A stretch of 64,000 nucleotides of DNA from Pseudomonadota bacterium (GTDB lineage Bacteria; Pseudomonadota; Alphaproteobacteria; Rhodobacterales; Rhodobacteraceae), in assembly GCA_039817245.1 (NCBI GenBank), contig JBCBWF010000001.1, positions 317-64,316 of the forward strand, in the 5' to 3' direction. Position 1 is the first letter of the stretch. Every line of letters starts with the position of its first letter. The position numbers and the translations under genes were made by a program. The notes under the pieces are model-generated. The model ran no database searches. It was not told the origin of the DNA and was given only the letters and a program-made list of their open reading frames with translations. Below, piece after piece: positions 520-17,605 of this stretch.

Positions 520-539
520 TTGGTCAGGGGGACTAGGCG

Positions 540-1604: not shown

Positions 1605-1791
1605 ACGCTATAAAAAAGATGAGGCGATCAGCTCGTCCACGCGACGACTACAAACCAAGTCGATTTCAAAACGCATTCGTGTCTTCCAGCGCAACTGAAC
1701 AACGGATACATCGCGGATTGACGAACCGAACGCACGCGAAAGAGCGACACGACACTTCGCAATAGCCGCCCACCAGGCGGAATGCAAGGAT

Positions 1792-2184
1792 CTACACTTT
1801 GTTCTTCGGCGGCTGCATCTCAAACTCCGAGGTGGCGAGGAAATTGTAGTCACAGGTCAATTCCTCGCCGCGCGCGATATCGCGCGCGGCGACCGCCCGA
1901 CCGGGCGTCGAGAAGTCGAGATTGGGCGTGTCCTCATGGTTCATGAACCGCCCGTCGTCCCCATCGAGCGCCATATGGCCAGGAAAGCTCGTCACCTCAT
2001 ACGCATAGCGTTCGTAGAACTCACGCACATGCTCCGGCGCCTCCGCCAGCGCCGCATTGGACACCAGTATGTCGAACATCTCGCTGAACTGCCAGACAAG
2101 CTGGCCTGCGACAATGTCCTCGTCAGTGAACACACCGAGACCCTCGATACGCGACTTCGCCACGTAGCACCGCACCATCATCAT
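1792..2184 (-). CDS. SET-domain protein-lysine methyltransferase-like protein (short rhizobial type)
   Basis: SRIEGLGVF, GRFMNHEDTPN, AARDIARGEELTCDY. Start moved to the MMMVRCYV ATG at 2184. Confidence 0.88.
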   Translation of the reverse strand: MMMVRCYVAKSRIEGLGVFTDEDIVAGQLVWQFSEMFDILVSNAALAEAPEHVREFYERYAYEVTSFPGHMALDGDDGRFMNHEDTPNLDFSTPGRAVAARDIARGEELTCDYNFLATSEFEMQPPKNKV

Positions 2185-2432
2185 ACCGATTGCCCCTCGC
2201 CGCCGCCTTTCTGCGGAACCGCTGTTGGAAACGAGCCTATGAGGCTGCCCGCATGAAAACAATCGCAGGGCCCCTGGGTCGCGCGTGACTGGCGGAATCG
2301 AGCGAAATCATCTATCAGGGCACGATAGTTGATGTAACGGCAGCGCAATCGGATCGGTAAATGATCGGAAAGCCGCCCAGATATCGCCAGAAACTCTGCA
2401 TACACGTTATGCCCAGTAAGTTTGAGGGCAGA

Positions 2433-2639
2433 ATGACGGATCGCGAGTTCGAGGGTGACAACTTCGCTTACGTTGGACCGTGGCGAATCGAAACCGGTGA
2501 TGCGTGGAGGGACTGGCAGATCTCCGCGCTTGAGGCCTGCATGAAGGCCTCCGAGCACAGCAATGACGAAGTGTCGCGGCGCCGCTTTGCCCGCGAAATC
2601 GATCGTCTCTCGCAAGTTCCGCTACGCCAGACCCGCTGA
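2433..2639 (+). CDS. Small hypothetical protein (68 aa)
   Basis: GAGGG RBS-like sequence shortly before the ATG at 2433; protein-like composition (MTDREFEGDNFAYVGPW...); no family recognised. Confidence 0.35.
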   Translation: MTDREFEGDNFAYVGPWRIETGDAWRDWQISALEACMKASEHSNDEVSRRRFAREIDRLSQVPLRQTR

Positions 2640-2661
2640 CGGGCCCGGCGCCGGTCGGCCC

Positions 2662-3480
2662 CTAGCGGGGCGGATCGCGGAAAGCGACGCCGCCGATCCG
2701 GGAGGGTCGGCGATCCCGCGGTGCTGCCCAGGTCTCCGGATCCACGATCATCGCTGCCACGGCCTCGGCCGCCGCCTCCAGGATCCGCTCCCCCTTCTCC
2801 GCGCTCGCCCGCGTCGGGTTCCCCGAGATCCCGTTCGCCGTGATATGGGCAAAGCCCCGCCAGCGATGCGAGGCGTTGCCGGCGCGACGATAGGGCGCCA
2901 GCCGCTCCGTCGCCAGCGCGCCCAGATCGCTCGCATCCACCAGATCCGGCTCCAGCGCCAGCATCATCGAGGTCTCCGCCTCGCCTGCATGCATGATCCC
3001 GCCCTGGTCTTCCAGGAGCGGCGCGATCGCTGCCGCCCCTTCCTCGGCATAGGTGGTGGCCACGATGGTGGCGCCGAGCGCCTCGCTCAGCCGGTCCACC
3101 GCCAGGTTCATGCTCGCAATGTTGCCGCCATGGCTGTTGGAGAGCACCAGTTCGGTGAAGCCGTGGCGCACCAGGCTGTGCAGCACGGACCGGAGCACGG
3201 CGAAGAACGCATCGTGTTCGAGCGTCAGCGTGCCGCCGAACGGCATGTGGTGCTCCGAAAGCCCGTGCCAGATCACCGGCGTCACCACCACCTCCCGCGC
3301 AGGCGCCGCCTTCCGCGCGGCGCGCACGGCCACCTCGTGGCCGATCCGCATATCGGTGTTCACCGGCAGATGCGGCCCGTGCTGTTCGATCGCGGCGACG
3401 GGCACGATCACCACCGCCCCCCGCTCCGCCAGCGCGCGCAACTCATGCGCCTTCAGCTTCGCCCACTCGACCTCGCTCAC
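2662..3480 (-). CDS. Creatininase-family (creatinine amidohydrolase-like) protein
   Basis: PVAAIEQHGPHLPVNTD, NSHGGN and HAGEAETS metal/catalytic motifs; GGAGG RBS before the GTG. Confidence 0.9.
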   Translation of the reverse strand: MSEVEWAKLKAHELRALAERGAVVIVPVAAIEQHGPHLPVNTDMRIGHEVAVRAARKAAPAREVVVTPVIWHGLSEHHMPFGGTLTLEHDAFFAVLRSVLHSLVRHGFTELVLSNSHGGNIASMNLAVDRLSEALGATIVATTYAEEGAAAIAPLLEDQGGIMHAGEAETSMMLALEPDLVDASDLGALATERLAPYRRAGNASHRWRGFAHITANGISGNPTRASAEKGERILEAAAEAVAAMIVDPETWAAPRDRRPSRIGGVAFRDPPR

Positions 3481-3545
3481 GGCGTCCTCCCCATCATCGG
3501 ATTTGCCGCGAGCCTAGCGCCGCGCCGGCCGGGGCGCCATGGCGC

Positions 3546-5171
3546 TCAGCGATGCCAGAGGGGCCGGCCGTCGAGCAGCGTCATGCTCACCCCCACGGCG
3601 CGGATCTCGTCCTCCGGGCAGGTGAAATAGTCCCGGTCGAGCACCGCGATATCGGCGCGCTTGCCGGGCTCCAGCGACCCCTTCACCGCTTCCTCCCGGC
3701 CCGACCAGGCGCCGAGCGTGGTGTAGGCGTGGAGCGCCTCCATCCGGCTCACCGCCTCGGCCCGGTCGAGATCGCCCCCGCTGTCGGACTGGCGCGTCAC
3801 CATCGACCAGAGCGCCAGGAACGGGTTGGCCTGGCACACCATCGCATCCGAGTGACCGGGCGCCGGGATCCCCGCATCGATCAGGCTCCGATGGGGCCAC
3901 ATGTGCCGCATCGCCGCCTGCCCGCGATTGGCCCGGTAGGCATCGCCGAGATCGTACATGAACCCGGTCGCCGAGCTGTCCACCGCGCCGAGCCGCGCCA
4001 GCCGCTCCCGGATCGCAGGGGTCACATAACAGCAATGCTCCACCCGCATCCGGTGATCCTCCACGGGGTGCGCGGCCAGGCACGCCTCGATCGCGTCGAG
4101 GGCGAAATCGATCCCCCGGTCGCCGACCCCCTCGATCATCACCTGCAGCCCGGCGGCATGCGCGGCCACTGCCCGCGCCGCCAGATCCTCCGCCTCGTAG
4201 AGCAGCATGCCGGTGTTCGGCACCGGCTCGCCGGGGATCGCGGCGCCCGAATAGGGCTCGTAATAGGCCGCTGTCCGCCCGGAGGTGGAACAGTCCGGGC
4301 ACCATTCCACCCCGATCACCCGCAGCATGTCGTCGCCGAAGCCCGAGCGGATCCCGGCGCGGATATAGGCCTCGACCAGCCCCTCCTCGCGCCCCGAGAC
4401 GATGATGCCCACCCGCATCGCCAGCCGGTCCTCCGCCTTCAGCCGCTGCAGCGCCTCGATCGAGCGCCGCCCGCAGAGCGAGTTGTAGACGCTGGTGACC
4501 CCGTAGCCGCGCCACTCCGCGAACACGCGCTCGAGCCCGTCCGCCAGCATCTCCGGCGTGTCGCCCGCATGGATGTGGCTGAGGAACACATGCGCCGCCG
4601 CCTCCCGGCAGAGCCCGGTGATCGCCCCGCTCGCCGGATCGCGGTCGAACTGGCCGAATGGCGGATCCGCCGGGTCCGTCCCCAAGCCCACCGCCGCGAA
4701 GGCCGCGCTGTTGGCGAGCCCGATATGCCCGTCCGTGCGCTGGATGTAGAGCGGCCGCCCCCCGGCCGCCGCATCCATCTCGGCAAGGCTCGGATAGCCG
4801 CCGGATTTCACATCGTCGAACCGGTAGCACACGATCCAGTCCCCCGGCCCGCGACCGGCCGCCAGCGCCGCGACCCGCTCCAGCAGCGCCGCGCGCGAGG
4901 CCACCCGGTCCGGGCTCACCGCCTCCCAGGTCGCCAGCCGCGCGGCATAGCTGTCGGGATGCGCATGGCTGTCCACGATGCCGGGGATCGCCGTCGCCCC
5001 CTCCAGCGCGATCTTCTCGGTGCCCGGCCGCGCCAGCGCCTCGATCTCCGCATCCCCGCCGGTCGCCACGATCCGCCCGTCCGCCACCGCCAGCGCCGAG
5101 ACAAAGCGGTTATCGGCATCCATCGTGGCGATGCGGCCGCCGGTCAGGATCAGATCTGGCGCGAGGCTCAT
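3546..5171 (-). CDS. Amidohydrolase family 3 (YtcJ/NfdA-like) metal-dependent hydrolase
   Basis: DLILTGGRIATMD start, PGIVDSHAH, RVEHC, HSDA, GSLEPGKRADIAVLDRD end. Start at MSLAPD with an AAGGAG RBS. Confidence 0.9.
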   Translation of the reverse strand: MSLAPDLILTGGRIATMDADNRFVSALAVADGRIVATGGDAEIEALARPGTEKIALEGATAIPGIVDSHAHPDSYAARLATWEAVSPDRVASRAALLERVAALAAGRGPGDWIVCYRFDDVKSGGYPSLAEMDAAAGGRPLYIQRTDGHIGLANSAAFAAVGLGTDPADPPFGQFDRDPASGAITGLCREAAAHVFLSHIHAGDTPEMLADGLERVFAEWRGYGVTSVYNSLCGRRSIEALQRLKAEDRLAMRVGIIVSGREEGLVEAYIRAGIRSGFGDDMLRVIGVEWCPDCSTSGRTAAYYEPYSGAAIPGEPVPNTGMLLYEAEDLAARAVAAHAAGLQVMIEGVGDRGIDFALDAIEACLAAHPVEDHRMRVEHCCYVTPAIRERLARLGAVDSSATGFMYDLGDAYRANRGQAAMRHMWPHRSLIDAGIPAPGHSDAMVCQANPFLALWSMVTRQSDSGGDLDRAEAVSRMEALHAYTTLGAWSGREEAVKGSLEPGKRADIAVLDRDYFTCPEDEIRAVGVSMTLLDGRPLWHR

Positions 5172-5247
5172 GGCGTTCTCCTTGCAAGCGAGAATGGACA
5201 GGACGGGCGAAGCGGTGTGAGGGTAGACCACCCGCAGGAGAGCCGAA

Positions 5248-5949
5248 ATGCCCCCCGCTGCCACCCCCGCCTTCGAAGTCCCCGCCGACCCCTATCCGTG
5301 GCCCATCGAGCCGCTCGCACCTCACCAGGCCGCGCTCATTGTCATCGACATGCAGCGCGACTTCTGCGCGGCGGAGGGCTATGTGGCTCAGCTCGGCGAG
5401 GATATCGCGCCCCTCGCCGCCGCCATCGGCCCCACGCAGCGCTGCCTCGCCGCCGCGCGCGCCACGGGCCTGCGTGTCCTCTACACCCGTCAGGGCTACC
5501 GCCCCGATCTCGCCGACATGCCCGCCTGGCGCCGTCTAAAGGCCGAGCGCCACGGCACCGTCGTGGGCCGCGAAGGCCCCCTCGGCCGCGTCCTCATCCG
5601 CGGCGAGCCGGGCTTTCAGATCCTGCCCGAGCTTGCGCCCCAGCCGGGCGAGCCCGTGATCGACAAGACCGCCAATGGCGCCTTCACCGGGACCGATCTC
5701 GACACCGTGTTGCGCGCTGCCGGCATCCGCGCGCTCGCCTTCGCCGGCGTCACCATCGATGTCTGCGTGCACACCACGCTGCGCGAGGCCAATGACCGCG
5801 GCTACCAGTGCCTGCTCCTCTCGGATGCCTGCGGCGCCATCGAGCAGGGCCTGCATGACTGGGCGATCCGCTCGGTGACCATAGAGGGCGGGGTCTTCGG
5901 CTCCGTCGCCGATACCGCCGCCTTCGAGGAGGGATTGAGACCGCGATGA
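5248..5949 (+). CDS. Isochorismatase-family cysteine hydrolase, biuret/guanylurea hydrolase (BiuH/GuuH) subgroup
   Basis: ADPYPWP, IDMQRDFC (catalytic D), IDK (catalytic K), TIDVCVHTTLREANDRG (catalytic C), GGVFGSV; colinear with BiuH as I recall its sequence. Confidence 0.85.
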   Translation: MPPAATPAFEVPADPYPWPIEPLAPHQAALIVIDMQRDFCAAEGYVAQLGEDIAPLAAAIGPTQRCLAAARATGLRVLYTRQGYRPDLADMPAWRRLKAERHGTVVGREGPLGRVLIRGEPGFQILPELAPQPGEPVIDKTANGAFTGTDLDTVLRAAGIRALAFAGVTIDVCVHTTLREANDRGYQCLLLSDACGAIEQGLHDWAIRSVTIEGGVFGSVADTAAFEEGLRPR

Positions 5950-6776
5950 CCGACAACCCGGACAACAGCCCTGCCCCCTTCGCGCCAATGGCCGACACCG
6001 CCGGCCCCCTTCGCCCCGCCGATCCCTGGTTCGCCATCGAATGGCAGCCGCACGGTATCCTGCGGATCTGGGAGCCGCATGTCTCGCGGCTGCTGCGCGC
6101 CAACATGTTCCTCGTGCGCGGCGCCGAGCGCGACCTGCTGGTCGATGCGGGCATGGGTGTCGCCAGCCTCCGCCGCTTTCTCCAGCCCTATCTCGAGCGG
6201 CCCGTCATGCTCCTGCTGACCCATGCGCATGTGGACCATGTCGGCTCGGCCGCCGAGTTCCAGGGCACGATCCTGATGCACGGCGCCGAGGCGGATCTGC
6301 TCGGCACCCCGTCACCGGACTGGTCGCTGAGCTACGACGACTACCCGCCCGAGAAACGCGCGGGCCTCGCCGCCGCCGGCTTCGACACCCGCGGCCATGT
6401 GATCGCCGCGAGCCCGCATGCCGGCTTCGACCCCGCTGCATGGTCGATCGCACCGGCGCGCGCCACCGAGATCGTGTCCGATGGCGACGTGATCGATCTC
6501 GGCAACCGGCGCTTCGAGGTGCTGCACCTGCCCGGCCACAGTCCCGGCTCCATCGGTCTATGGGAGGCGGAGACGGCCACGCTGATCGGTGGAGACGCGA
6601 TCTATGACGGGCTGATCATCGACACGCTGCCCGAAAGCGACCCCGCCGCCTATCGCGAGACGATGCATCGCCTGGGCAGGCTCGGTGCTTCGATTGTGCA
6701 TGGCGGTCACCGGGAGAGCTTCGGCGCCCAGAAGCTCGCCGTAATCGCCGAGGGGTACCTCGCGTCGAAAGCCTGA
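5946..6776 (+). CDS. MBL-fold metallo-hydrolase
   Basis: THAHVDHVG (HxHxDH), HLPGHSPGS, GGDA, GGH. ATGA overlap with the upstream gene. Confidence 0.88.
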   Translation: MTDNPDNSPAPFAPMADTAGPLRPADPWFAIEWQPHGILRIWEPHVSRLLRANMFLVRGAERDLLVDAGMGVASLRRFLQPYLERPVMLLLTHAHVDHVGSAAEFQGTILMHGAEADLLGTPSPDWSLSYDDYPPEKRAGLAAAGFDTRGHVIAASPHAGFDPAAWSIAPARATEIVSDGDVIDLGNRRFEVLHLPGHSPGSIGLWEAETATLIGGDAIYDGLIIDTLPESDPAAYRETMHRLGRLGASIVHGGHRESFGAQKLAVIAEGYLASKA

Positions 6777-6907
6777 CGCATGGGCAGAGCCTGCCCGAAA
6801 ATTGCGCAACGGAGCATCATCGCCCCGATCTCTGATTGATGCTTGCGCTGAGCGCTGCTCTATGGCCAGAATTCAGGCGATGGCTGAGGCAGCGTACAAC
6901 CGTGACC

Positions 6908-8017
6908 ATGCGTGACACCGGAGGCGCCGCCGTCTCTCACGCGCTCTCGCTGCGCGGCCTCTCCAAGCACTACGGCACGCTCGCAGCCGTGGACAACATC
7001 GACCTTGAAATCGCCCGCGGCCAGTTCCTGACCATCCTCGGCCCCTCGGGCGGAGGGAAGACGACGGTGCTGATGGCGATTGCCGGCTTCGTCGAACCTT
7101 CCGCCGGGCAGATCCTCCTGGACGGGGACGACATCACCGGGCTGCCGCCGGACAAGCGCAAATTCGGCATGGTTTTCCAAGGCTATGCGCTCTTTCCTCA
7201 CATGACGGTTGCGGACAATCTGTGGTTCCCGCTGCGTGTCCGCGGGGTTTCGCGCGCCGCCGCGAAGCCCAAGGTGGAGGCCGCGCTCGAGCTCGTGCAG
7301 ATGGGCCATCTCGGCCGGCGCTATCCCACCCAACTCTCCGGCGGCCAGCAGCAGCGCGTCGCGCTCGCCCGCGCGCTCGTCTTCGAGCCAGACCTGCTGC
7401 TGCTCGACGAACCGCTCTCAGCCCTCGACAAGAAGCTTCGCTCAGACCTCCAGTGGGAACTGAAGTCTCTCCACCAACGCCTTGGGACAACGTTTATTTA
7501 TGTCACCCACGATCAGGACGAAGCGCTCTCGATGTCCGACGAGATCGTCATCATGCGCCAAGGCCGGATCGAGCAGCAAGGCCAACCCGGCGCCCTTTAT
7601 GAACGGCCCGCAACCCGCTTTGTCGCGGACTTCCTCGGCAAGTCGAACTTCATCGAGGGCCGCGCACAGGAGGCCAACGGCGGCCGCCTCGCCTATGAGG
7701 CCGGCGGCCTCAGCCTCCTGCAGGAGACCGCAGAACGCCCCGCCACGGGCGCGTCCGTCACCGTCGCCCTTCGCCCCGAGAAGATCGTCATCGCGCCCGG
7801 GGACGCCCCTCCCGCGGTCGAGAACCGCGTCGAGGGCCGCATCACGGCGGTGAACTACTACGGCGCCAGCTTCCAGTTCCGCGTGGCCACCGAGGCGCTC
7901 GGCGACCTGCTCGTGGCCGCCCCCGCCTGGACCTGCCAGGTGGCGCAGGAGCCGGGCACGCCCGTCTGGCTCGGCTGGCCGCCGGGCGCCTCCGTCCTGG
8001 TGCGCGATACCGGCTGA
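6908..8017 (+). CDS. Polyamine/opine-type ABC transporter ATP-binding protein (PotA-like)
   Basis: Walker [10 protein letters not shown], signature LSGGQQQR, Walker B LLLLDEP, YVTHDQ, C-terminal TOBE-like region. Confidence 0.92.
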
Positions 8018-8075
8018 TCCGCACCGCACCCGAAGCGCCCGGGCGAGCGGGCGCACAACAACAGGGAGACGACCA

Positions 8076-9263
8076 ATGAGCATCCTCAAGACCGCGTATG
8101 AGAAGGACCTCTACCCCGAGATCGAGGACGCCGGCGACAGCGATTTCGCACGCGACTGCGTGGAGATCGCCGCGACCCGGCTCGCCCGCGGGGAGATCGA
8201 CCGGCGCACCTTCCTCACGGCGCTCACGGCGCTCGGCGCGCTCTCCGCCGCGGGCATCGGCGGGGGCGCGAAAGCGGCCGAGGGTGAGATCGTGGTCGTC
8301 AACTGGGGCGGCCCGGCGGTCGACGCCTACTACAACGCCTTCGGGGTGCCCTTCGAGGGCGCGAGCGGGCTCAAGGTGGTGATCGATGGCACCGGCCCCC
8401 TGCTCTCCAAGATCCGCGCCATGGTGGAATCCGGCGCCGTCACCTGGGATGTGTGCGACACGGGCGCCGCGACGACGCTGGTGCTCGAGAAAGCCGGCGT
8501 GATCCAGGCGATCGACTATGCGGTTGTCGACAAGACCAAGGTGGTGAAGGACTACGCCTATGACTACGGCGTCGCCAACTACCTCTTCAGCTACATCCTC
8601 GCCTACAACAAGGCGAAGCTGGAGACAGCGCCGGCGAGCTGGGCCGACTTCTGGGACACCTCGAAGATCCCGGGCATGCGCACCCTCCGCAAGCAGCCCA
8701 ACGGCATGATCGAAGCGGCGATGTTCGCGGCCGGCAAATCGAAGGACGAGATCTACCCGATCGATCTCGACCTCGCGATGGAGAAGCTGAAGGAGATCCG
8801 CGACGACGTGATCGTCTGGGGGTCGGGCTCGCAGTCCCAGGAGTTGTTCCGCACCGGCGAGGTCGTGATGGGCAACATCTGGCACACCCGCGCCAACCTG
8901 CTGAACCGCGACATGAGCGGCGACGTGGTCTGGACCTGGAACGAGGGCATCGCCACCGCGGGCATGTGGAACGTGCCGAATGGCAACCCGGCCGGCACGG
9001 AGGCCGCCATGGCCTTCATCGCCTCCTCGCAGGACCCCGAGCAGCAGGTGGCACTCTTCGCCGCCATGGGCAACGGGCCGGCCAACCCGGCTGCCGCGCC
9101 GCTGGTGCCGGCCGACCGCCAGTTCGCCGATCCGGGCCAGCCGGGCAACTGGGCACTGCAGGTCAAGCAGGATGCGCGCTGGTATCAGGCGGAGAGCGGC
9201 AAGGGCGATCTCACCAACGACGCGCTCGCGCGGGAGCTCTATCTCGACGTGATGTCCGGCTGA
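8076..9263 (+). CDS. Polyamine-type ABC substrate-binding protein (PotD/PotF-like), Tat-exported
   Basis: Twin-arginine motif DRRTFL plus hydrophobic stretch; VVNWGG, SWADFWD and LRK motifs of this family; GGGAG RBS. Confidence 0.9.
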   Translation: MSILKTAYEKDLYPEIEDAGDSDFARDCVEIAATRLARGEIDRRTFLTALTALGALSAAGIGGGAKAAEGEIVVVNWGGPAVDAYYNAFGVPFEGASGLKVVIDGTGPLLSKIRAMVESGAVTWDVCDTGAATTLVLEKAGVIQAIDYAVVDKTKVVKDYAYDYGVANYLFSYILAYNKAKLETAPASWADFWDTSKIPGMRTLRKQPNGMIEAAMFAAGKSKDEIYPIDLDLAMEKLKEIRDDVIVWGSGSQSQELFRTGEVVMGNIWHTRANLLNRDMSGDVVWTWNEGIATAGMWNVPNGNPAGTEAAMAFIASSQDPEQQVALFAAMGNGPANPAAAPLVPADRQFADPGQPGNWALQVKQDARWYQAESGKGDLTNDALARELYLDVMSG

Positions 9264-9282
9264 GCCGCCGGCGGCCTGCGAG

Positions 9283-10119
9283 ATGACGGGAACGCTCCGG
9301 CTCAACTACTGGCTGCTGATCGCCCCGGCGCTCGGCGTGATGCTCGTGTTCTACGTCTTCCCGCTGGTCCAGGTGCTCTGGATGAGCGTCACCGAGCCCT
9401 ATCCGGGGCTGCAGAACTACGAGCGGCTGATGGAGCGGCGCACGCTCCATCGCATCTGGTGGACCACGCTGGAGATCTGCGTGCTGACCACCGCCATCAC
9501 CGTGGTACTCGGCTATGTCGTGGCCTATGCGATGGTGATGGTCGGCGAGGGGCAGCGCACGGGCATGATGTTCTGCCTCCTGCTCTCGCTCTGGCTGAGC
9601 GTGCTGGTGCGCGCCTTCGCCTGGGTCATGCTGCTCCGGAGCGAGGGGCTCGTGAACCAGGGGCTTGTGGCGACCGGCATCGTCGACGAACCCCTGAGGC
9701 TGGTGCGCAACCAGTTCGGGGTGATCGTCGGCATGGTGCATTTCATGCTGCCGCTCGCCACACTGCCGATCTACTCGAACATGTCCGGCATCGAGGCACG
9801 GCTCGTCTCGGCGGCACGCGGGCTCGGCGCCTCGCCGGCGCAGGCCTTCTGGCATGTGTTCCTGCCGCTCTCCAAGCCTGGGATCATCGCGGCGACGATC
9901 CTGGTCTTCGTCTTCTCGCTCGGCTTCTTCATCACACCCGCGCTCCTCGGCGGGGGCAAGGTGGTGATGATCTCGGAGTATATCCGCGTGAGCTTCGAGG
10001 AGACTTTGCGCTGGGGCGAGGCGACGATGCTCTCCACCGTGCTCCTCTTCGCGGTGCTTCTGGCGCTGGGGCTGGTGGCGCGGTTCGTCGATCTCCGCCA
10101 GGTTTTCGGTGCGCGATGA
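9283..10119 (+). CDS. ABC permease (PotB-like)
   Basis: Multiple TM helices; EAA loop LVSAARGLGA; FITPALLGG. Confidence 0.9.
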   Translation: MTGTLRLNYWLLIAPALGVMLVFYVFPLVQVLWMSVTEPYPGLQNYERLMERRTLHRIWWTTLEICVLTTAITVVLGYVVAYAMVMVGEGQRTGMMFCLLLSLWLSVLVRAFAWVMLLRSEGLVNQGLVATGIVDEPLRLVRNQFGVIVGMVHFMLPLATLPIYSNMSGIEARLVSAARGLGASPAQAFWHVFLPLSKPGIIAATILVFVFSLGFFITPALLGGGKVVMISEYIRVSFEETLRWGEATMLSTVLLFAVLLALGLVARFVDLRQVFGAR

Positions 10120-10934
10120 AGGATCCGCGCGTCCGCTTCGGCCGGTATTTCGCGCTCGGGCTCGCCTGGACGGTGCTGGGCTTTCTCGTGCTGCCGATGA
10201 TCATCGTGGTGCCGGTCTCGCTGACGGACCAGTACTACCTGTCGCTGCCGCAGGAGCGCCTTTCGCTCGAGCACTACCGGGCCTTCTTCGAGAAGGAGAT
10301 CTGGATCTCCGCGACGATCGACAGCCTGGTCATCGCCGTCGCGGCCACGATCCTCGCGGTGCTGCTCGGCACGCTCTGCGCGATCGGCTGCTGGCGGCTT
10401 GCCTCGGGTGCCGCGGAGGCGGTGCGGATCTTCATGCTGACGCCGATCATCGTGCCGGTGATCGTGCAGGCGCTGGCGATCTATCGGTTCTGGATCGATC
10501 TCGGGCTGATCGACACCTATCTGGGCGCGATCATCGCGCATACGCTGATCGCGATCCCTTACGTCGTGATCACTGTCTCGGCCGCGCTCTCGAACTTCGA
10601 CCCGCGCATCGAGCAGGCTGCGCGCAATCTCGGGGCCAACACCTCGCAGACCGTGCGCCTCGTCATCCTGCCCTCGATCATGCCGGGGGTGCTCTCCGGC
10701 GCGCTCTTCGCCTTCACGATCTCCTTCGACGAGATCGTGATGATGCTCTTCATCACCAGCCGGGCCGTCTACACGCTGCCCAAGCGCATCTGGAACGGCA
10801 TTCAGGACCATCTCGATCCCACGATCGCGGCAGTGGCGACGATGCTGATGGTGCTGACGGCGCTGCTCCTGCTGATCGAGCTCTGGACAAGGCGGCGCCG
10901 GCGCGCCCGGCTCGCGGCCATCGCGGAGGAATGA
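10116..10934 (+). CDS. ABC permease (PotC-like)
   Basis: Starts MKDPRVRF with an ATGA overlap; EAA loop IEQAARNLGA; SFDE; TLPK. Confidence 0.9.
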   Translation: MKDPRVRFGRYFALGLAWTVLGFLVLPMIIVVPVSLTDQYYLSLPQERLSLEHYRAFFEKEIWISATIDSLVIAVAATILAVLLGTLCAIGCWRLASGAAEAVRIFMLTPIIVPVIVQALAIYRFWIDLGLIDTYLGAIIAHTLIAIPYVVITVSAALSNFDPRIEQAARNLGANTSQTVRLVILPSIMPGVLSGALFAFTISFDEIVMMLFITSRAVYTLPKRIWNGIQDHLDPTIAAVATMLMVLTALLLLIELWTRRRRRARLAAIAEE

Positions 10935-10938
10935 GCCC

Positions 10939-12561
10939 ATGACCGAGCCCTACGAGCCCATCCCGCCCGCGCCGATGACGCCGGCGAAGCAGACCGCGTT
11001 GGACTGGATCGAGGCGGCGGCACCTGCGCTCTCCGAGGATCACATGACCCTCTGGCATTTCCACGAGCCCGCCTGGCGCGAATACCGGTCGGCGGCCTGG
11101 TACGTGGCGCGGCTGCGCGCCGAGGGCTTCGAGGTCGAGGAAGGCTCTGCCGGGATGCCAACGGCCTTCGCCGCGCGTTGGTCGAACGGCGAAGGGCCCA
11201 CCATCGGGGCGTATGCGGAGTATGACGCCGTGCCCGGCTGCAGCCAGGAGGCCGTGCCCTACCGCAAGCCCCGCGCCGGCACCCACCCCTCCGCTGCGGG
11301 CCACACGGATCCGCATTCCGCGCTCGGCATGGGCGGGCTCACGGGGGTCCTCGCCCTGAAGGCGGCGATGGCGGCGCATGACATTCCCGGCACCATCGCC
11401 TTTTTCGGCGAGCCGGCGGAGAAGATGTGCGGCTCCAAGCCCATCCATGCGAGCCACGGCTACTACGACACGCTGGACGCGGCGATCAGCTTTCATCCGA
11501 CCTCCCTGCCCGCGCTTTCGAACACGGTGATCTGGGAGACCCATTGCGGCTGCTACTGGTCGAAGGTCTTCACTTTCACCTGCCCGGAGCCGCAGGACTG
11601 GGGCGGCTCGGGCGACCGCAAGGGGCTGCAGAACTACCACGCCGTCGCACGCGCGCCGGCGGCACAGGACGCGCTCGTGCAGATGTATGCGCTGACGCAG
11701 GCGACGAAGGAGAACATGCTGCCCCACACGGGTAGCTGGACCCTGAACGAAGCGATCCTGGCGGGCGGATTTGCAACTTCCGACAACCTGCCGCCGCGCT
11801 TTGCACAGCTGCAATATGCCTGGCGCTGCCCCTCCATAGACATGGCCGAGGCGATCGACCGGGTGCTGGAGCACAACGCCGCGCATATCGCCGCGCTGAC
11901 CCACTGCGATGTCGAGAGCGGCTGGGTGACGCGCACGCGCCCGGGGCTCGCCAACCACGCCCTCGCGGCGACCACCTATGCGAATTTCGCGCTGGTGGGT
12001 CCGCCGACCTTCCCGGAGGCCGCGCGCGCCTTCGGGCGGGAGATCCAGAAGAGCCTCGGCCTCGCGCCGGATCCCGACCCGTTCCCGGACAACATGGAAG
12101 CGCTCGTCGACCCGCGTGCGGGCGAGGCCATGATCCGCGCCATCCTGCCGCCCTGGCAGACCAACTACACCTCGGACGACTATACGGACTACACATGGCA
12201 CGCGCCGACCGTGCGCCTCTATGTGGGCCGCCCGGTGATCCGTCCGCTGACCAGCGGACGGGTGACGCCGCACTGGTGCCGCTGGGCGCTCGGCGGCGTT
12301 CCGGCGGCGATGGATCCGATGTTCCTGACCGCGGGACGCGTGATCGCGACGACAGCGCTCGACCTCCTGACAGACGGCACCTCGCTCGCCGCGGCACGCG
12401 CGGAGTTCGAGCGGCGCACCGGCGGCGGCATCGACGGCTCCGCCTGGATCCCGCCGCTTCTGGGGCCGAACGCGCCTGCGCCGGTCCACTACCCCTGGCC
12501 CGAATATGTGGAGACCGGACGCGGGGCGGACTGGTGTGTGCCCGCCCGGCCGGGCGATTGA
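10939..12561 (+). CDS. M20-family amidohydrolase, AbgB (p-aminobenzoyl-glutamate hydrolase subunit B)-like
   Basis: FHEPAWREY, GMPTAFAA, AEYDAVPG, GEPAE, FHP and SDD motifs, colinear with AbgB-type proteins. Confidence 0.82.
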   Translation: MTEPYEPIPPAPMTPAKQTALDWIEAAAPALSEDHMTLWHFHEPAWREYRSAAWYVARLRAEGFEVEEGSAGMPTAFAARWSNGEGPTIGAYAEYDAVPGCSQEAVPYRKPRAGTHPSAAGHTDPHSALGMGGLTGVLALKAAMAAHDIPGTIAFFGEPAEKMCGSKPIHASHGYYDTLDAAISFHPTSLPALSNTVIWETHCGCYWSKVFTFTCPEPQDWGGSGDRKGLQNYHAVARAPAAQDALVQMYALTQATKENMLPHTGSWTLNEAILAGGFATSDNLPPRFAQLQYAWRCPSIDMAEAIDRVLEHNAAHIAALTHCDVESGWVTRTRPGLANHALAATTYANFALVGPPTFPEAARAFGREIQKSLGLAPDPDPFPDNMEALVDPRAGEAMIRAILPPWQTNYTSDDYTDYTWHAPTVRLYVGRPVIRPLTSGRVTPHWCRWALGGVPAAMDPMFLTAGRVIATTALDLLTDGTSLAAARAEFERRTGGGIDGSAWIPPLLGPNAPAPVHYPWPEYVETGRGADWCVPARPGD

Positions 12562-12691
12562 TCGAAACGCCCGCCGATGGTCCCGGCCCCCGAGCCGGGA
12601 CCTCCTTGACAACCGCCTCAGGGAGGGCCCGGCTCGGCGGCCGGGGCCCGCGACGGGCCGCAGCGAAGACAACAAGACGAGGGAGACCGGG

Positions 12692-13705
12692 ATGAGCGGC
12701 GCCGTCAGCGAGTTCGAATACCGCTACAACATGACTATCCGCAGCTTTCCGAGCCATGCGGATCCCAGCTTCGAGAGCGCCGGACAGCAGGAGACGGTCT
12801 GGGGCCGGCGCTGGGGTTGCGACAACGATGTCGGCACGCTGCGCATGGTGCTGATGCACCGCCCCGGCGACGAGATGGCCGTGATCGACCCGGAGAAGCG
12901 CATCGAGCGGCTCAACTCCTACGGCGACGAAGCGGGGCAGACCTGGTACTGGCGCGGCAACCGGCTCCCCGATCTCGCCGCCCAGCAGGCCCAGCACGAC
13001 GCGCTCACCGCCGCCCTGCGGGCCGAGGGCGTGGAGGTCGTGCTGATCGACCGCGCCGGCCCCGGCAAGCACAAGCAGATCTACACGCGTGACAGCTGCA
13101 TCGGCGTCCAGGGCGGCGCCATCGTCACCCGGCTCGGGCCCATCGTGCGCCGGGGCGAGGAAGCCCCGGTCACCCAGGCGCTCGCCCGGGTCGGCTGCCC
13201 GATCCTGCGGACCATCAACGGGCGCGGGCTGATGGAGGGCGGCAGTTTCGTCTGGCTCCGCCCGGGCCTCGCGGTCATCGGCCGCTCCAGCCGCGTCAAC
13301 GAGGAGGGTGCACGCCAGGTGGAGGAGGTGCTGCGCGAGGCCGGCGCCGAGCTCATCCGCGTCGACCTGACCGGCTACAGGCTCCATATCGACGGCGCCC
13401 TGGTGATGATCGACGCCGATACCGCCATCACCAACCCCACGCAGCTCCCCTTCTGGTTCCTGGAGAAGCTCGATGCGCTCGGCATCCGGCAGATCGAGGT
13501 GCACCCCGACGATGCCGTCGGTTGCCTCAACTGCCTCGCCGTGCGCCCGGGGCGGGTCATCATGCAGGCGGGACTCTCGCCGCGCACGGCGGACCGGCTC
13601 GACCGGCTCGGTATCGAGATCGTGCCGGTCGACTACGATCTCGTCTACGAGGGCGGCGGCGGCATCCACTGCTCCACCTCGCCACTCATCCGCGACCCGC
13701 TGTGA
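12692..13705 (+). CDS. Amidinotransferase/arginine-deiminase superfamily hydrolase (DDAH-like)
   Basis: DVGTLRMVLMHRPG, YTRD, EGGS, LHID and GGGGIHCSTSP give the Asp-His-Cys triad; GAGGGAG RBS before ATG 12692. Confidence 0.88.
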   Translation: MSGAVSEFEYRYNMTIRSFPSHADPSFESAGQQETVWGRRWGCDNDVGTLRMVLMHRPGDEMAVIDPEKRIERLNSYGDEAGQTWYWRGNRLPDLAAQQAQHDALTAALRAEGVEVVLIDRAGPGKHKQIYTRDSCIGVQGGAIVTRLGPIVRRGEEAPVTQALARVGCPILRTINGRGLMEGGSFVWLRPGLAVIGRSSRVNEEGARQVEEVLREAGAELIRVDLTGYRLHIDGALVMIDADTAITNPTQLPFWFLEKLDALGIRQIEVHPDDAVGCLNCLAVRPGRVIMQAGLSPRTADRLDRLGIEIVPVDYDLVYEGGGGIHCSTSPLIRDPL

Positions 13706-14655
13706 CCTCCGCTCTGGAGGCGCGCGGCCTCTTCCGCCCGGTCGGCAGCTTTCTCGGGGTGGAGCAGACGCGGGATCTCTCGGGTGCGCGGGCGGCGATC
13801 CTCGGCCTGCCCTTCGATGCCGGCACCCATCCGCGCCGGGTGGGTGCGCGCCTCGGGCCGGCGGCAATCCGCATGATGTCGACCGACATGGTGCGCCACC
13901 ACCGGCCGCAGCATGCCGACGACCGCGATCCGGTGCGCGCGCTCGGCCTCGTCGATCTCGGCGATGTCGATGTGGTGCATGGCGATACGGACGCCTCGCT
14001 CGCGCGCATGGCGGAGGCGATCGGAGCCGTGGCCGATGCCGGAACCGTCCCGATCGGGCTCGGCGGCGACGGGATGGTCAGCGTACCGGCGATGACTGCG
14101 CTCGGCGCGCGCCATCCGGGCCTCGCGGTCATCCATTTCGACAGCCACACGGACGCCTATCCAGAGCCCGGCCAGGGCAACGCGCTGCATCTCGGCCCCG
14201 CCACGACCTTCGCGCATGCGGCCGAGCGGGGGCTGGTGGATCCGCGCGCCTCGATCCATGCGGGGCTGCGCGGCTTCGCCTATGTCCCGGGCGTCTTCGC
14301 CCATGCGGAGCGGCTCGGCTACCACGTGATGGCCATGGACGAGATCGAGAACGACGGCATTCCGGCCGCCATTGCGCGCATCCGTGCCGTCGTCGGCGAC
14401 CGGCCGGTCTTTCTCTGCTGGGACATGGACGTGTTCGACCCGGCGACCGCCCCCGGTGTCTTCACGCCGGCCTGGGGCGGGCTCACGGCGCGCGAGGGGC
14501 TTGCCCTCATCCGCGGGCTCTCGGGGCTGAACATCGTGGGCTGCGACGTGAACACCACCACGCCGAGCTTCGATGTCCAGGGGCAGACGGCGTGGCTCGC
14601 GGCCACCGTCGTGATGGAGTTCTGCTACCTGCTCGCGGAGCGATTGCGCGCATGA
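13702..14655 (+). CDS. Ureohydrolase (agmatinase/guanidino-acid hydrolase family), atypical
   Basis: GLPFD, GARLGPAAIR, HFDSHTD, WDMDVFDP, PGVFTP..GG; GGDG in place of GGDH. GTGA overlap with the upstream gene. Confidence 0.88.
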   Translation: MTSALEARGLFRPVGSFLGVEQTRDLSGARAAILGLPFDAGTHPRRVGARLGPAAIRMMSTDMVRHHRPQHADDRDPVRALGLVDLGDVDVVHGDTDASLARMAEAIGAVADAGTVPIGLGGDGMVSVPAMTALGARHPGLAVIHFDSHTDAYPEPGQGNALHLGPATTFAHAAERGLVDPRASIHAGLRGFAYVPGVFAHAERLGYHVMAMDEIENDGIPAAIARIRAVVGDRPVFLCWDMDVFDPATAPGVFTPAWGGLTAREGLALIRGLSGLNIVGCDVNTTTPSFDVQGQTAWLAATVVMEFCYLLAERLRA

Positions 14656-15602
14656 AAGGCGCGCTCGGCATGGGTCTCGGGGCCTATGCCCCGGTCATGG
14701 TGACCGTCACGCTCTGGTCCTTCCAGATCCCGGCGCTCCACCATCTCGGCATGCGCTGGGACCCGGCCACGCTCAACGTCCTGCGCTACATCATTGCGGC
14801 TGCCGCTTTTCTTGCGATCGCAGCGATGGCGCGACGCAGTCCCGCCGGCCCGACGCAGCCGCCTCTCGGGCCGTTACGGGGCCTCGGCCTCGGCGCGCTC
14901 TTCGCCGGGTTCGGGCTTCTCTTCACGGTGGCCACGACCATCGGAGACCCGATCATGGTGGTCACAGCGGCGGCGTTGATGCCGCTCACCGCGAGCCTCG
15001 TGAACTGGGTGGTGCTCGGCACACCGCCTTCCATGCCGCTTGTCGCGGCACTCTTTCTCGTCGTTCCGGGCGCGGCCCTCACCACCCCCGCCGGTCCCGC
15101 GCTGGAGGGCGACGCAGCGGGATGGCCCGTCGCCGGACTGCTCCTGATCCTGCTGGCGCAGGCCGTGTGGAGCCTCTACTCGCTCAGCGTCCAGCGCTGG
15201 CTCGAGGGCCACTCGAACCTCGCGCGCACCCGGCTCTCGGTGCTCTGGTCGATCCCGTACCACGCGCTCGTCTTCGTGCTGGCAGCAGGGTTGGGGCTGC
15301 TTCGGGCCGATGCGGAGGTGGCGCCGATGACCGACGGTATCCTGATCGTCGCGATCACGCTCGGCCCCCTCGTGCTGGGGGTGATGCTCTGGAACCTCAG
15401 CGTCACGCGGATCGGCCTGCCGGTCTCGGCGCTCTTTCTCAATCTCGTGCCGGTGCTCGGGGTTGGCGTGGCCACGCTTTTCGGCAGCACGCCCGATGGC
15501 TGGCAGCTCCTCGGCGTCGCACTCGTCATCCTCGGCATGGGCGCCGCGCAGTATCGCCGGCGCGATGTGACCGAAGGACGACCGACCGTGCCCCGGGCCT
15601 GA
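14652..15602 (+). CDS. DMT/EamA-family transporter
   Basis: About 10 hydrophobic helices in two repeats; LRY and FLNLVPV motifs; ATGA overlap. Confidence 0.8.
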   Translation: MKGALGMGLGAYAPVMVTVTLWSFQIPALHHLGMRWDPATLNVLRYIIAAAAFLAIAAMARRSPAGPTQPPLGPLRGLGLGALFAGFGLLFTVATTIGDPIMVVTAAALMPLTASLVNWVVLGTPPSMPLVAALFLVVPGAALTTPAGPALEGDAAGWPVAGLLLILLAQAVWSLYSLSVQRWLEGHSNLARTRLSVLWSIPYHALVFVLAAGLGLLRADAEVAPMTDGILIVAITLGPLVLGVMLWNLSVTRIGLPVSALFLNLVPVLGVGVATLFGSTPDGWQLLGVALVILGMGAAQYRRRDVTEGRPTVPRA

Positions 15603-15666
15603 GCCGCGCTCTCGCCGGCGCGTGCTTTCGGCGCTAGGCTCGGCGCAGCAGCAAAAGGAGACCGCT

Positions 15667-16425
15667 ATGCCGGACGACCAGACCCTCTCCGAAGCGCTCG
15701 CCGTGAAGCGGCGCGACCTGGCGGCCGCCTACCGGCTGATCGCCCATTTCGGCTATGACGACGGGATCTACACGCATATCTCCGCCCGTATCGACGAGGG
15801 GCGCTTCCTGCTCAATCCGTTCGGGCTGAGCTTCGACGAGGTGCGCGCCTCCAACCTCGTGACGATCGACGAGGAAGGCCGGGTGCTGGACGACCCGCTC
15901 GGCAACGGCGTGAACGCGGCGGGCTTCACCATCCATTCCGCCGTGCATATGGCGCGGCACGATGTGGACTGCGTGGCGCACACGCATACCGTGGCGGGCG
16001 TCGCGGTTTCGAGCCAGGAAGAGGGGCTCCTGCCGCTGAACCAGTGGTCACTCCAGTTCTACGGCGGCATCGCGTTTCACGACTATGAGGGGATCGCGCT
16101 CGATCTGGATGAGCGCGAGCGGCTGGTCGCCGATCTCGGCCCGCACTACACGATGATCCTGAGGAATCACGGACTCCTGACCTGCGGGCGGAGCGTGGGC
16201 GAGGCGATCAAGCTGATCCTGAACCTAGAGCGGAGCTGCAAGGCGCAGGTGGCGGCGCTCGCTGGCAACCGGCCGCTGCGCATCCCGCCGCAGGAGGTCT
16301 GCGAGAAGACCGCCGCGCAGTATCGCGACGGTGCGGATGCGGTGGCGAGCGGCGAGCGGCCCGACCACCAGTGGGCCGCCTATCTGCGCCTCCTCGACCG
16401 CGTCGCGCCGGACTACAAGGACTGA
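15667..16425 (+). CDS. Class II aldolase/adducin-family protein
   Basis: THISAR, IHSAVH, AHTHT, LRNHG zinc-ligand motifs; AAGGAG RBS. Confidence 0.9.
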   Translation: MPDDQTLSEALAVKRRDLAAAYRLIAHFGYDDGIYTHISARIDEGRFLLNPFGLSFDEVRASNLVTIDEEGRVLDDPLGNGVNAAGFTIHSAVHMARHDVDCVAHTHTVAGVAVSSQEEGLLPLNQWSLQFYGGIAFHDYEGIALDLDERERLVADLGPHYTMILRNHGLLTCGRSVGEAIKLILNLERSCKAQVAALAGNRPLRIPPQEVCEKTAAQYRDGADAVASGERPDHQWAAYLRLLDRVAPDYKD

Positions 16426-16435
16426 CGCGCCGGCT

Positions 16436-17419
16436 TCAGGCGGCTTCGAGCCGCCGGGTCGTGCCGTCCCCGCGCGGCACGATCCACACCTCGTCATAGG
16501 GGTAATCCGCCTCGGAGCCGGCGCGGAGCTTCCGGATCACCTCGATCTGGAACTCGATCCAGCCCATCGCGTAGGGCTCGGCACCCGCGCCGCGCATGGC
16601 GGCATCGAGCTCGGCGAGCCGCCAGAAGGGCACCGCCGGGAAGCTGTGATGCGCGGTATGATAGGGCATCTGCCAGCAGAGCCACCGCATCAGCGCGTTG
16701 GTGCGCGTCGTGCGCGTGTTCTTCAGGATATCGTTCTCGTGGCTCAGGCCGAGATGCTCGATGGTGTTCTGCAGCTGGTGCACGAACTTCATCGCCATCA
16801 TCGGCGCGAGCCACAGGATCACCGCGGCCCAGCTCTGCAGCGCGATCGAGGCGAGAGCGATGAGCGCGTAGAGCGCGACATGGATACGCGCCTCGCGGAT
16901 CACCAGCGCATGCTCGTCCGGCCGCACATAGGGCTCCGCCACGATCCCTCGGCTGAGCCGCACCAGCCGGGAGACGCGCGAATACCAGTAGGTCGGGCCC
17001 CAGAACCAGAGCAGGTAGCTCGTCAGCGTATACGGCTCGCGCACCAGCTCGCCGTCCTTCTCCCAGTCCTGCGTGTGCTGGTGGTGCGCCCAGTGCTGGA
17101 TCTTGTCGAAGTCCCGCGGGTAGAGCATCAGAAAGCCGATGATCCGGCCGAAGAGGGTGTTGGGCCATTTCGTGCGGAACACGGTGCCGTGGGACAGCTC
17201 ATGCTGGCCGGCGTAGAGGAAGTTGAGCAGCACCCCGTGGATCGCGAAGACCGGGACCGCCCACCAGCTGCCCCATGTCAGCCAGAGCGCCGTGCCCGAG
17301 AGTGCGAGGGCCGCGATATGCGAGCCGAGCTGCAGCGCGCCCCGGAAATCGGAGCGCTGCATCAGCGCACGAAGGGCGGCGGGCTCAAGAAGACGGCGGC
17401 GGCTGAATGTGGCGTCCAT
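16436..17419 (-). CDS. Membrane fatty-acid-desaturase-family di-iron oxygenase (MocD-like)
   Basis: Three His boxes: HELSH, HWAHHQH, YHTAHH; TM segments; GAGG RBS before MDATFSRR. Confidence 0.85.
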   Translation of the reverse strand: MDATFSRRRLLEPAALRALMQRSDFRGALQLGSHIAALALSGTALWLTWGSWWAVPVFAIHGVLLNFLYAGQHELSHGTVFRTKWPNTLFGRIIGFLMLYPRDFDKIQHWAHHQHTQDWEKDGELVREPYTLTSYLLWFWGPTYWYSRVSRLVRLSRGIVAEPYVRPDEHALVIREARIHVALYALIALASIALQSWAAVILWLAPMMAMKFVHQLQNTIEHLGLSHENDILKNTRTTRTNALMRWLCWQMPYHTAHHSFPAVPFWRLAELDAAMRGAGAEPYAMGWIEFQIEVIRKLRAGSEADYPYDEVWIVPRGDGTTRRLEAA

Positions 17420-17605
17420 GACGTTCCTCACAGCGAGTTTGCACCGCACCACGCTATCCGCGCCGACGGGGCATGAACAGTGCCGCTACGGGACAATCGA
17501 GGCAGGGATCGACGCTTTTCCGCCTCGCGCGATCATGGCAGAAGTGTGGCGGCCCTTATGCTTGGGCCGCTTGCAATGACAGGGACACCGATCCGCGAGC
17601 GAACG

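Follow-up and report, generated by a model that had tools for sequence, protein, structure and literature searches.

A stretch of 64,000 nucleotides from an alphaproteobacterium of the Rhodobacteraceae (NCBI GenBank assembly GCA_039817245.1, contig JBCBWF010000001.1, positions 317 to 64,316 of the forward strand; referred to throughout as the window) carries, at positions 3546–16425, a gene cluster in which an ATP-binding cassette (ABC) importer is joined to a series of hydrolases. Our preferred reading, to which we give a probability of roughly 55%, is that this is a horizontally mobile catabolic cluster for an omega-guanidino carboxylate, which would be imported, deiminated and then decarbamoylated. 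The conserved core of the cluster consists of six genes, encoding a PotA-like ATPase, a binding protein, two permeases, an AbgB-like amidohydrolase of the M20D fold (referred to as M20L) and a cysteine hydrolase of the DDAH/arginine deiminase fold (the DDAH-like hydrolase). Amidohydro_3, the MBL-fold hydrolase, the class II aldolase and the EamA transporter are lineage-variable accessories of this core. The original prediction, made from the sequence alone, had drawn a wider island (2662–16425) and placed in it seven hydrolase families, an ABC importer, an EamA transporter and a class II aldolase. All of these were recovered at the claimed places, as judged by open reading frames (ORFs), Pfam, NCBIfam and AlphaFold models. 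Linked catabolism with guanidino chemistry likewise held up for most of the genes; what did not is the single stepwise pathway through seven hydrolases, since a six-gene core with interchangeable accessories was found instead.

To score the neighbourhood, 80 loci from named genomes were collected by a search anchored on M20L, and every window protein was compared against them; the per-gene locus counts given here are lower bounds, since several of the loci are truncated. The DDAH-like gene was present in at least 67 of the 80 loci and was the same-strand neighbour of M20L in 63. Homologues of the ATPase at 40% identity or above were found in at least 41 loci, with the binding protein in at least 42 and permeases 1 and 2 in at least 48 and 50, respectively. 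Amidohydro_3 (54–77% identity) and the MBL-fold gene were each seen in at least 21 loci, and the class II aldolase in at least 20 (45–78% identity), mostly in distant lineages and often directly after M20L. The arginase-family ureohydrolase was recovered in at least 10–14 loci, the isochorismatase-family gene related to BiuH in at least 8–10 (Rubellimicrobium and Mangrovicella among them, at 48% identity) and EamA in at least 4–5, these being the closest loci. The accessory families (Amidohydro_3, MBL, BiuH-like, ureohydrolase, aldolase II and EamA) thus join the core in varying combinations and recur at 42–78% identity in distant lineages. Recurrence in phylogenetically distant hosts points to a functional link with the core, and the changing combinations argue against a single fixed linear pathway.

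Clustering of all ORFs of the loci resolved two architectures. Type A was found in the window and in Thalassobaculum, Bosea, Microvirga, Phaeobacter, Heliomarina, Nitrobacteraceae, Hypericibacter and a Roseovarius plasmid. It begins with a regulator, sometimes followed by genes for 4-aminobutyrate transaminase (GabT) and succinate-semialdehyde dehydrogenase (SSADH, GabD), and continues with the ATPase, a binding protein of the SBP_bac_8 family, the two permeases, M20L and the DDAH-like gene. The regulator is lineage-dependent (LysR, TetR, GntR or AraC), and the 3' end sometimes carries a thiamine diphosphate (TPP) enzyme, a carbamoylase or a deacetylase. Type B was found in Ancylobacter, Devosia, Mesorhizobium, Rhizobium, Sinorhizobium, Shinella, Mangrovicella and Kozakia; one of its arms encodes an amino-acid-type ABC importer (SBP_bac_3), a PuuE-like polysaccharide deacetylase and an AllC-type carbamoylase, and the divergent arm TetR, the DDAH-like hydrolase, M20L, aldolase II and a TPP enzyme. 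Type B extras comprise a DMT/EamA transporter, a conserved hypothetical protein of 154 aa and sometimes an AruH/GntC-like aminotransferase. Scores for the partner enzymes of the relatives were 701 bits for SSADH (TIGR01780, cut-off 646) and 804 bits for GabT (NF005692, cut-off 724). The carbamoylase was placed by NCBIfam in the allantoate amidohydrolase/carbamoylase subfamily, and the nearest named family of the TPP enzyme is 5-guanidino-2-oxopentanoate decarboxylase (AruI), which is also the name given to the Shinella enzyme by NCBI PGAP.

A second, diverged DDAH-like paralogue, with the N-terminus MSEAEYRENTFFSIFGS..., accompanies the conserved 154-aa protein in several type B loci (L046, L064, L074, L076 and L080). 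The 154-aa protein had no Pfam or NCBIfam match, and both genes are a few kilobases away from the main DDAH-like/M20L pair.

Within the genus of the window, M20L was found in 3–4 of 19 genomes, and the flanking context was different each time. Two same-genus genomes (G012 and G013) are collinear with the window from Amidohydro_3 to the DDAH-like gene and differ from it in their flanks; their tails differ too, with ureohydrolase and EamA in G012 and aldolase in G013. Nucleotide homology to the window extends over 3601–15460 in G012 and 3601–16265 in G013. This synteny, together with the recurrence around M20L in many lineages, indicates an arrangement beyond chance. Of 301 genomes sampled across the class, 18 had M20L and 8 the DDAH-like gene, with 6 carrying both (Fisher p = 5e-7).

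Plasmid-borne M20L modules were found in Kozakia (beside a transposase), Sinorhizobium (pSymA), Shinella, Roseovarius and Arthrobacter. The 48.6-kb plasmid of Roseovarius sp. Pro17 (L102, 8559–11020) carries a minimal, seven-gene version of the module, in which M20L is accompanied by a different DDAH-superfamily member (305 aa, 32% identity to that of the window), an importer of the same type and a LysR regulator. On the Arthrobacter plasmid, an Amidohydro_3 homologue (28% identity) lies two genes upstream of M20L, with a TPP enzyme between them and SSADH after M20L, and on the Shinella plasmid a DMT transporter occurs together with M20L and the aldolase. The region 3546–16425 behaves as accessory, mobile DNA.

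The creatininase family gene at the left edge, counted into the island by the original prediction, is a chance neighbour. It was found in none of the 80 M20L loci, and its homologues in the same genus (58–64% identity) are unlinked to the cluster in G012 and G013, have no neighbours in common with the window and, in G013, lie about 1 Mb from the cluster. The score against the creatininase equivalog TIGR04448 was 111.6 bits (cut-off 235). Membership of the creatininase in the cluster was rejected on these counts, and because nucleotide homology starts at 3601 and the same-genus creatininase homologues lie elsewhere, the cluster unit is 3546–16425. Linkage in other genomes therefore failed for the creatininase and was borne out for the other genes, sparsely so for the isochorismatase and EamA.

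These results bear directly on the proposal of one stepwise pathway in which the creatininase and the other six hydrolases together break down a cyclic guanidine, a biguanide, guanylurea or a creatinine-type compound, which we regard as very improbable. The creatininase gene does lie only 65 nt from Amidohydro_3, and creatininase-family genes stand beside biuH on some archaeal contigs (PMC12625717); the pocket changes of the BiuH-like protein (Q to E and K to N) and the altered metal sites of the ureohydrolase and M20L, described below, could also be accommodated by such a pathway. The proposal is at odds with the absence of the creatininase from the related loci, with its unlinked position in same-genus genomes that carry the block, with the independent assortment of the accessory genes and with BiuH and creatininase equivalog scores that fall under their cut-offs. 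Metformin hydrolase operons encode paired MfmAB subunits together with HypAB/UreJ genes (PMC10927577), whereas the window has a single ureohydrolase, with no MfmB-like partner and no HypAB/UreJ nickel genes in 1–20000. An Rfam scan of the same interval found no riboswitch, the guanidine type included. The genome does encode urease fragments and an allophanate hydrolase, all on other contigs (the allophanate hydrolase on C119). A metformin, guanylurea or biuret pathway was accordingly rejected, given the missing MfmB partner and nickel genes, the BiuH score and the distant allophanate hydrolase, and the biguanide, metformin and cyclic-guanidine substrates put forward in the original prediction found no support.

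As a separate observation, a GatA/amidase-signature gene on the minus strand of the window, at about 57101–58336, gave a weak match to the allophanate hydrolase family (148 bits, far below the cut-off).

The DDAH-like hydrolase represents an uncharacterised pentein family. Its AlphaFold model (pLDDT 88) has the pentein fold, and Foldseek returned NnhA, the P. aeruginosa DDAH (PaDDAH; 1h70, TMt 0.87), arginine deiminase and AGAT at 16–24% identity. C327 (in GGGGIHCST), H232 and E182 are invariant across 24 homologues and align with C249, H162 and E114 of PaDDAH. The guanidinium-binding residues D134 (TRD motif, reading YTRDS) and D234 (HxD motif, reading HIDG) are invariant across the same homologues. 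In the putative citrullinase CtlX, both substrate-binding Asp residues are replaced by Asn (PMC9007349). A CtlX-like citrullinase was rejected for this gene because both guanidinium Asp residues are kept, and retention of the pair that CtlX has lost points to a guanidino or amidino substrate rather than a ureido one. Alignment with PaDDAH further places R153 (invariant) and R201 (nearly invariant) at the positions of the two Arg residues that we take to hold the carboxylate, and the invariant K128 at Asp60, which presumably binds the alpha-amino group. From the sequence, we infer that the substrate would be a guanidino carboxylate that lacks a free alpha-amino group. Scores against the DDAH and arginine deiminase equivalogs were all far below cut-off, the DDAH models giving 68.8, 64.3 and 38.3 bits against 340, 450 and 300.

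The same active site could instead belong to an enzyme for an arginine-type substrate in which the alpha-amino group is blocked or substituted, such as an N-alpha-acyl-arginine, an opine-like N-carboxyalkyl-arginine or a methylarginine. In this main rival, the DDAH-like hydrolase would deiminate or demethylaminate the side chain, and M20L would cut the N-acyl or N-alkyl amide bond. Among solved enzymes that match the whole active site, PaDDAH is the nearest; the carboxylate-holding Arg pair is kept and the invariant Lys could bind an extra carboxylate or an acyl oxygen. The structural neighbours of M20L (PM20D2, N-acyl-glutamine aminoacylase and AbgB) hydrolyse N-acyl-amino-acids or dipeptides, and type B loci have SBP_bac_3 importers along with an AruH/GntC-like aminotransferase and an AruI-like decarboxylase. 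We nevertheless consider an arginine-type substrate unlikely, given that all DDAH equivalog scores are far under their cut-offs, that the GabT and GabD (SSADH) genes of the relatives indicate a four-carbon omega-amino acid product and that the ureohydrolase resembles guanidino-acid hydrolases and not arginase. The binding protein is also far nearer to 4-aminobutyrate (GABA) binders than to the opine binders that would favour such a substrate.

For M20L, the AlphaFold model (pLDDT 91, pTM 0.92) shows the catalytic and lid domains of the M20 fold, and Foldseek matched it to HmrA (3ram; E = 1e-26, TMt 0.83) and further to PM20D2, N-acyl-glutamine aminoacylase and AbgB (3io1). Profile scores were below cut-off (17.8 against 24.6 for PF01546 and 89.4 against 153.75 for TIGR01891). 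Both metal motifs are altered, HxCGH to GHTDPH (Cys to Asp) and PAEE to PAEK (Glu to Lys), and both changes are invariant in the family. The two changes go together, with the first motif reading GHTDPH or GFxDxH, in homologues down to about 33% identity; more distant proteins have the canonical AbgB-like motifs. This pattern suggests a metal site that is built differently and is possibly mononuclear. More than 2,400 M20L homologues occur in Alphaproteobacteria and beyond, named only 'amidohydrolase' or 'AbgB'. The step carried out by M20L is uncertain: it may take the carbamoyl group off a ureido acid, or it may act ahead of deimination by cleaving an amide.

The importer provides a second indication of the substrate. 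Its binding protein carries a Tat-type signal (DRRTFL), and its best solved relatives are the GABA binder Atu4243 (4eq7, E = 6e-51) and a Pf622-derived sensor (6dgv), followed by the agropine and mannopine (opine) binders at E = 6.5e-33. Comparison with the spermidine/putrescine binder 8jv1 gave E = 5e-21 and with the PotF/putrescine binder 7xjm E = 1.7e-6, and no PotD/PotF NCBIfam model matched. Being closest to the GABA binders, the protein is expected to take a carboxylate-type ligand, and because the importer genes are joined to guanidino-group hydrolases, that ligand is probably a guanidino analogue of similar length. Guanidinoacetate and 3-guanidinopropionate are presumably about as long as GABA and 5-aminovalerate. 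The GABA importer Atu4243 of Agrobacterium and PA0602/AgtB/PA4985 of P. aeruginosa share the binding-protein branch and the PotA-type ABC architecture; systems of the Atu4243/PA0602 type take up GABA or 5-aminovalerate itself, whereas here the importer genes stand with hydrolases. In P. aeruginosa, homologues of the binding protein have GABA and 5-aminovalerate as ligands, and the gene for one of these homologues is next to those for arginine-transaminase regulators (PMC11113362). Atu4243 is part of the repressed Atu4232 regulon, in which a further 12 genes have no known function and whose natural inducer is likewise unknown (PMC3656012). GABA may not be the physiological ligand of the Atu4243 transporter branch.

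The polyamine-type specificity assigned to the importer in the original prediction was thus not upheld. We find it scarcely credible that the locus is simply an ordinary polyamine or agmatine importer lying among unrelated hydrolase genes that have no common pathway. The ATPase does score above the PotA subfamily cut-off, no regulator, promoter or riboswitch unites the genes and the tail genes vary between same-genus genomes. Such an importer would, however, leave unexplained the adjacency of M20L and the DDAH-like gene in the loci counted above, in several orders and on plasmids too, the four start/stop overlaps between genes and the recurrence of the accessories in distant lineages, and its binding protein would be expected to resemble PotD or PotF.

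The nearest solved relative of the ureohydrolase is the 3-guanidinopropionase GpuA (3nip, E = 3e-53), followed by agmatinase and guanidinobutyrase; the agmatinase equivalog score was 144.9 against 174.3. The metal motifs DxHxD (DSHTD) and DxDxxDP (DMDVFDP) are kept, and GGDH is replaced by GGDG, with loss of the metal-ligand His. GGDG and an extra loop, G-x-HP(R/K)R-x-GA, are common to the window protein and to all nine orthologues of the clade, those in L002, L005, L007, L008, L010, L011, L012 and L025 among them, whereas canonical paralogues in other loci keep GGDH. The His of the extra loop might replace the lost ligand. Genes of the GGDG clade nearly always lie directly downstream of the DDAH-like gene; the gene in L007 is inverted and separated. 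The best solved relative of the BiuH-like protein is Rhizobium BiuH (6azo, E = 1e-74 over nearly the whole length). The D-K-C triad aligns, and the pocket reads DKTANG and TIEGGVFG, compared with DKPGKG and KMQGGVFG in 6azo. Because its family hydrolyses terminal carbamoyl amides, the protein is a plausible decarbamoylase; it would be a candidate ureido/carbamoyl amidase and could take over decarbamoylation where an AllC-type enzyme is missing.

For an omega-guanidino carboxylate, the proposed route would run as follows. The Tat-exported binding protein of the GABA/5-aminovalerate branch would hand the substrate to the PotA-type ABC importer, and the DDAH-like cysteine hydrolase would deiminate the guanidino group to a ureido group with release of NH3. 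M20L and/or the BiuH-like hydrolase would then remove the carbamoyl group to give CO2, NH3 and an omega-amino acid, a step for which the canonical carbamoylase of other lineages could serve. The GGDG-variant ureohydrolase would provide a second, urea-forming route or act on a related guanidino acid. The net products would be two NH3, one CO2 (or urea) and the omega-amino acid. Our best guess for the substrate is 4-guanidinobutyrate; 3-guanidinopropionate, guanidinoacetate or a close analogue would also be possible. More tentatively, and with doubt prevailing, the conserved pair may act as a urea-independent 'guanidino-acid dihydrolase', in which the Lys-bearing pentein deiminates and the remodelled M20D enzyme decarbamoylates, with the His-less, loop-His ureohydrolase clade running in parallel.

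Several points weigh against a guanidino-acid pathway of this kind. The ligand of the binding protein is deduced from homology alone, and the assignments of K128, R153 and R201 come from an alignment to PaDDAH at 24% identity combined with presumed DDAH ligand contacts. The known substrates of characterised M20D enzymes are N-acyl amino acids or dipeptides (beta-alanyl or GABA), not ureido compounds, and many relatives also carry a canonical carbamoylase, which leaves the M20L step ambiguous. The cluster contains neither GabT nor GabD; no GabT above the equivalog cut-off was found in the genome of the window, which weakens GABA as the end product here. In the class-wide sample, about two thirds of the M20L-positive genomes have M20L without the DDAH-like gene, and M20L loci of Shinella, Sinorhizobium and Arthrobacter are without any DDAH-like gene. 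Finally, regulators vary between lineages, and none is present in the window.

Literature searches returned no described pathway with this gene set or with the M20L/DDAH-like pair, in keeping with the original prediction, which had recognised no such combination. The AguA–AguB system follows the same logic: a cysteine hydrolase that modifies the guanidino group converts it to a ureido group, and decarbamoylation then gives CO2 and NH3 without urea. AguA, however, is of the PAD_porph type (PF04371, E = 0.25 for the DDAH-like protein), AguB is a CN-hydrolase where the partner here has the M20D fold, and agmatine has no carboxylate, whereas the Arg pair and the GABA-type binding protein suggest that the substrate here probably has one. 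P. aeruginosa has the guanidino-acid loci gbuA–gbuR and gpuPAR and an arginine transaminase pathway through AruH, AruI, KauB, GbuA, GabT and GabD. The former act on the substrate class proposed here, and GpuA and, after it, GbuA are the nearest relatives of the window ureohydrolase; the latter has counterparts in the AruI-like, aminotransferase, SSADH and GabT genes in the loci of relatives. The GbuA/GpuA route forms urea by way of a canonical dinuclear ureohydrolase, whereas the core here is the DDAH-like hydrolase with M20L, the ureohydrolase has GGDG, uptake is by an ABC importer and the window has no AruH, AruI or KauB gene. The proposed pathway would be an alternative to GbuA/GpuA that does not depend on urea.

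At the level of single enzymes, PaDDAH (PA1195; 1h70, 3rhy and 3bpb) has the same fold as the DDAH-like protein, with Cys/His/Glu, the guanidinium Asp and both carboxylate Arg residues aligned. The DDAH-like protein differs in having only about 24% identity, roughly 80 extra N-terminal residues, Lys in place of the alpha-amino Asp and other genomic partners. M20L has the two-domain fold of the AbgB/M20D enzymes (HmrA, PM20D2, ILR1 and hippuricase), and its N-terminal half aligns to TIGR01891; it differs from them in insertions of at least 60 residues, in the altered metal ligands and in having no AbgA partner or AbgT. The BiuH-like protein belongs to the same isochorismatase family as the biuret, triuret and guanylurea hydrolases BiuH, TrtA and GuuH, with the triad aligned; unlike theirs, its gene does not lie beside an allophanate hydrolase gene, its pocket is changed and it is found in a minority of the related loci.

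Gene models were built from six-frame ORF lists, a frame plot of G+C at third codon positions (GC3) and inspection of start codons and ribosome-binding sites. Families were called from Pfam and NCBIfam profile scores relative to their cut-offs, and structures were compared using AlphaFold models and Foldseek. Pfam and NCBIfam agree with the family of every gene, except that M20L is weak in Pfam. The coordinates are collected in Table 1. Intergenic gaps between the eleven plus-strand genes are 130 nt or less, and Amidohydro_3 is divergent from them across the 76-nt spacer. The coupling by overlapping start and stop codons that had been predicted was read directly in the sequence, as ATGA at 5946, 10116 and 14652 and GTGA at 13702. 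A convergent fatty-acid desaturase gene follows the aldolase.

Table 1. Genes and non-coding elements of the cluster and its left-hand neighbour, in window coordinates.
Feature	Positions	Strand	Remarks
Creatininase family hydrolase	2662–3480	-	PF02633 215 bits; adjoins cluster, non-member
Amidohydro_3 (YtcJ-like) metal amidohydrolase	3546–5171	-	PF07969 279 bits; no NCBIfam equivalog; divergent from operon
Divergent intergenic spacer, 76 nt	5172–5247	.	Presumed shared promoter region (function inferred)
BiuH-like isochorismatase-family cysteine hydrolase	5248–5949	+	Isochorismatase 148 bits; NCBIfam BiuH 276.4 bits (cut-off 370)
MBL-fold hydrolase	5946–6776	+	PF00753 67 bits; HxHxDH intact, reads THAHVDH
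PotA-type ABC importer ATPase with TOBE domain	6839–8017	+	TIGR01187 358.4 bits (cut-off 355.6)
Periplasmic binding protein, SBP_bac_8	8076–9263	+	GABA/5-aminovalerate/opine-binding branch
ABC permease 1	9283–10119	+	PF00528
ABC permease 2	10116–10934	+	PF00528 66 bits; frame backed by GC3
M20L, AbgB-like M20D-fold amidohydrolase, 540 aa	10939–12561	+	PF01546 E = 0.003; AlphaFold/Foldseek match
REP-like palindromic repeat	12569–12658	.	Between M20L and DDAH-like gene
DDAH/arginine deiminase-fold cysteine hydrolase	12692–13705	+	PF02274 and PF19420
Arginase-family ureohydrolase	13702–14655	+	PF00491 233 bits
EamA/DMT transporter	14652–15602	+	PF00892
Class II aldolase/adducin-family protein	15667–16425	+	NCBIfam PRK07044 313 bits (cut-off 207)

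A promoter and terminator scan found no sigma-70 consensus site, the 76-nt spacer included, and only weak terminator-like matches, all of them intragenic. In an operator search, the divergent promoter aligned poorly across three same-genus genomes. The palindromic repeat downstream of M20L forms a hairpin of 90 nt with 41-nt arms (-82 kcal/mol, z = -6), and the genome has about 47 related REP-like copies at scattered sites. A role of the 130-nt M20L/DDAH-like intergenic gap as a cluster-specific regulatory element was considered and rejected because the REP-like family is genome-wide.

Beyond the cluster, two SET-domain genes lie directly left of the creatininase gene, at 956–2262, in a patch of low G+C (0.59 compared with about 0.68–0.72). 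Just right of the cluster, positions 17480–19120 encode a 546-aa protein with caspase-like Peptidase_C14 and peptidoglycan-binding PG_binding_1 domains.

Soils and the sea commonly contain guanidino compounds, which are rich in nitrogen and include arginine breakdown products, animal phosphagens (such as glycocyamine and creatine) and plant metabolites. To our knowledge, few bacterial routes for them have been described, namely ureohydrolases, AguAB and the guanidine carboxylase or hydrolase systems. The cluster described here is real, mobile, widely conserved and unstudied, and it probably imports small guanidino acids and hydrolyses off their nitrogen. Databases name the genes of the module only 'amidohydrolase' and 'arginine deiminase family protein', and assignment of the substrate would annotate two enzyme families together. 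Culturable carriers include Thalassobaculum litoreum DSM 18839, Bosea minatitlanensis LMG 26207 and Microvirga brassicacearum CDVBN77, and, for type B, Sinorhizobium meliloti Rm41 and Kozakia baliensis NBRC 16680. If the 'dihydrolase' proposal is true, three unstudied active-site variants would be united in one mobile module. Assignment of the substrate would also show how catalysis proceeds in an M20 enzyme whose metal-binding Glu has become Lys, and it would add a urea-free nitrogen route for marine and rhizosphere bacteria.

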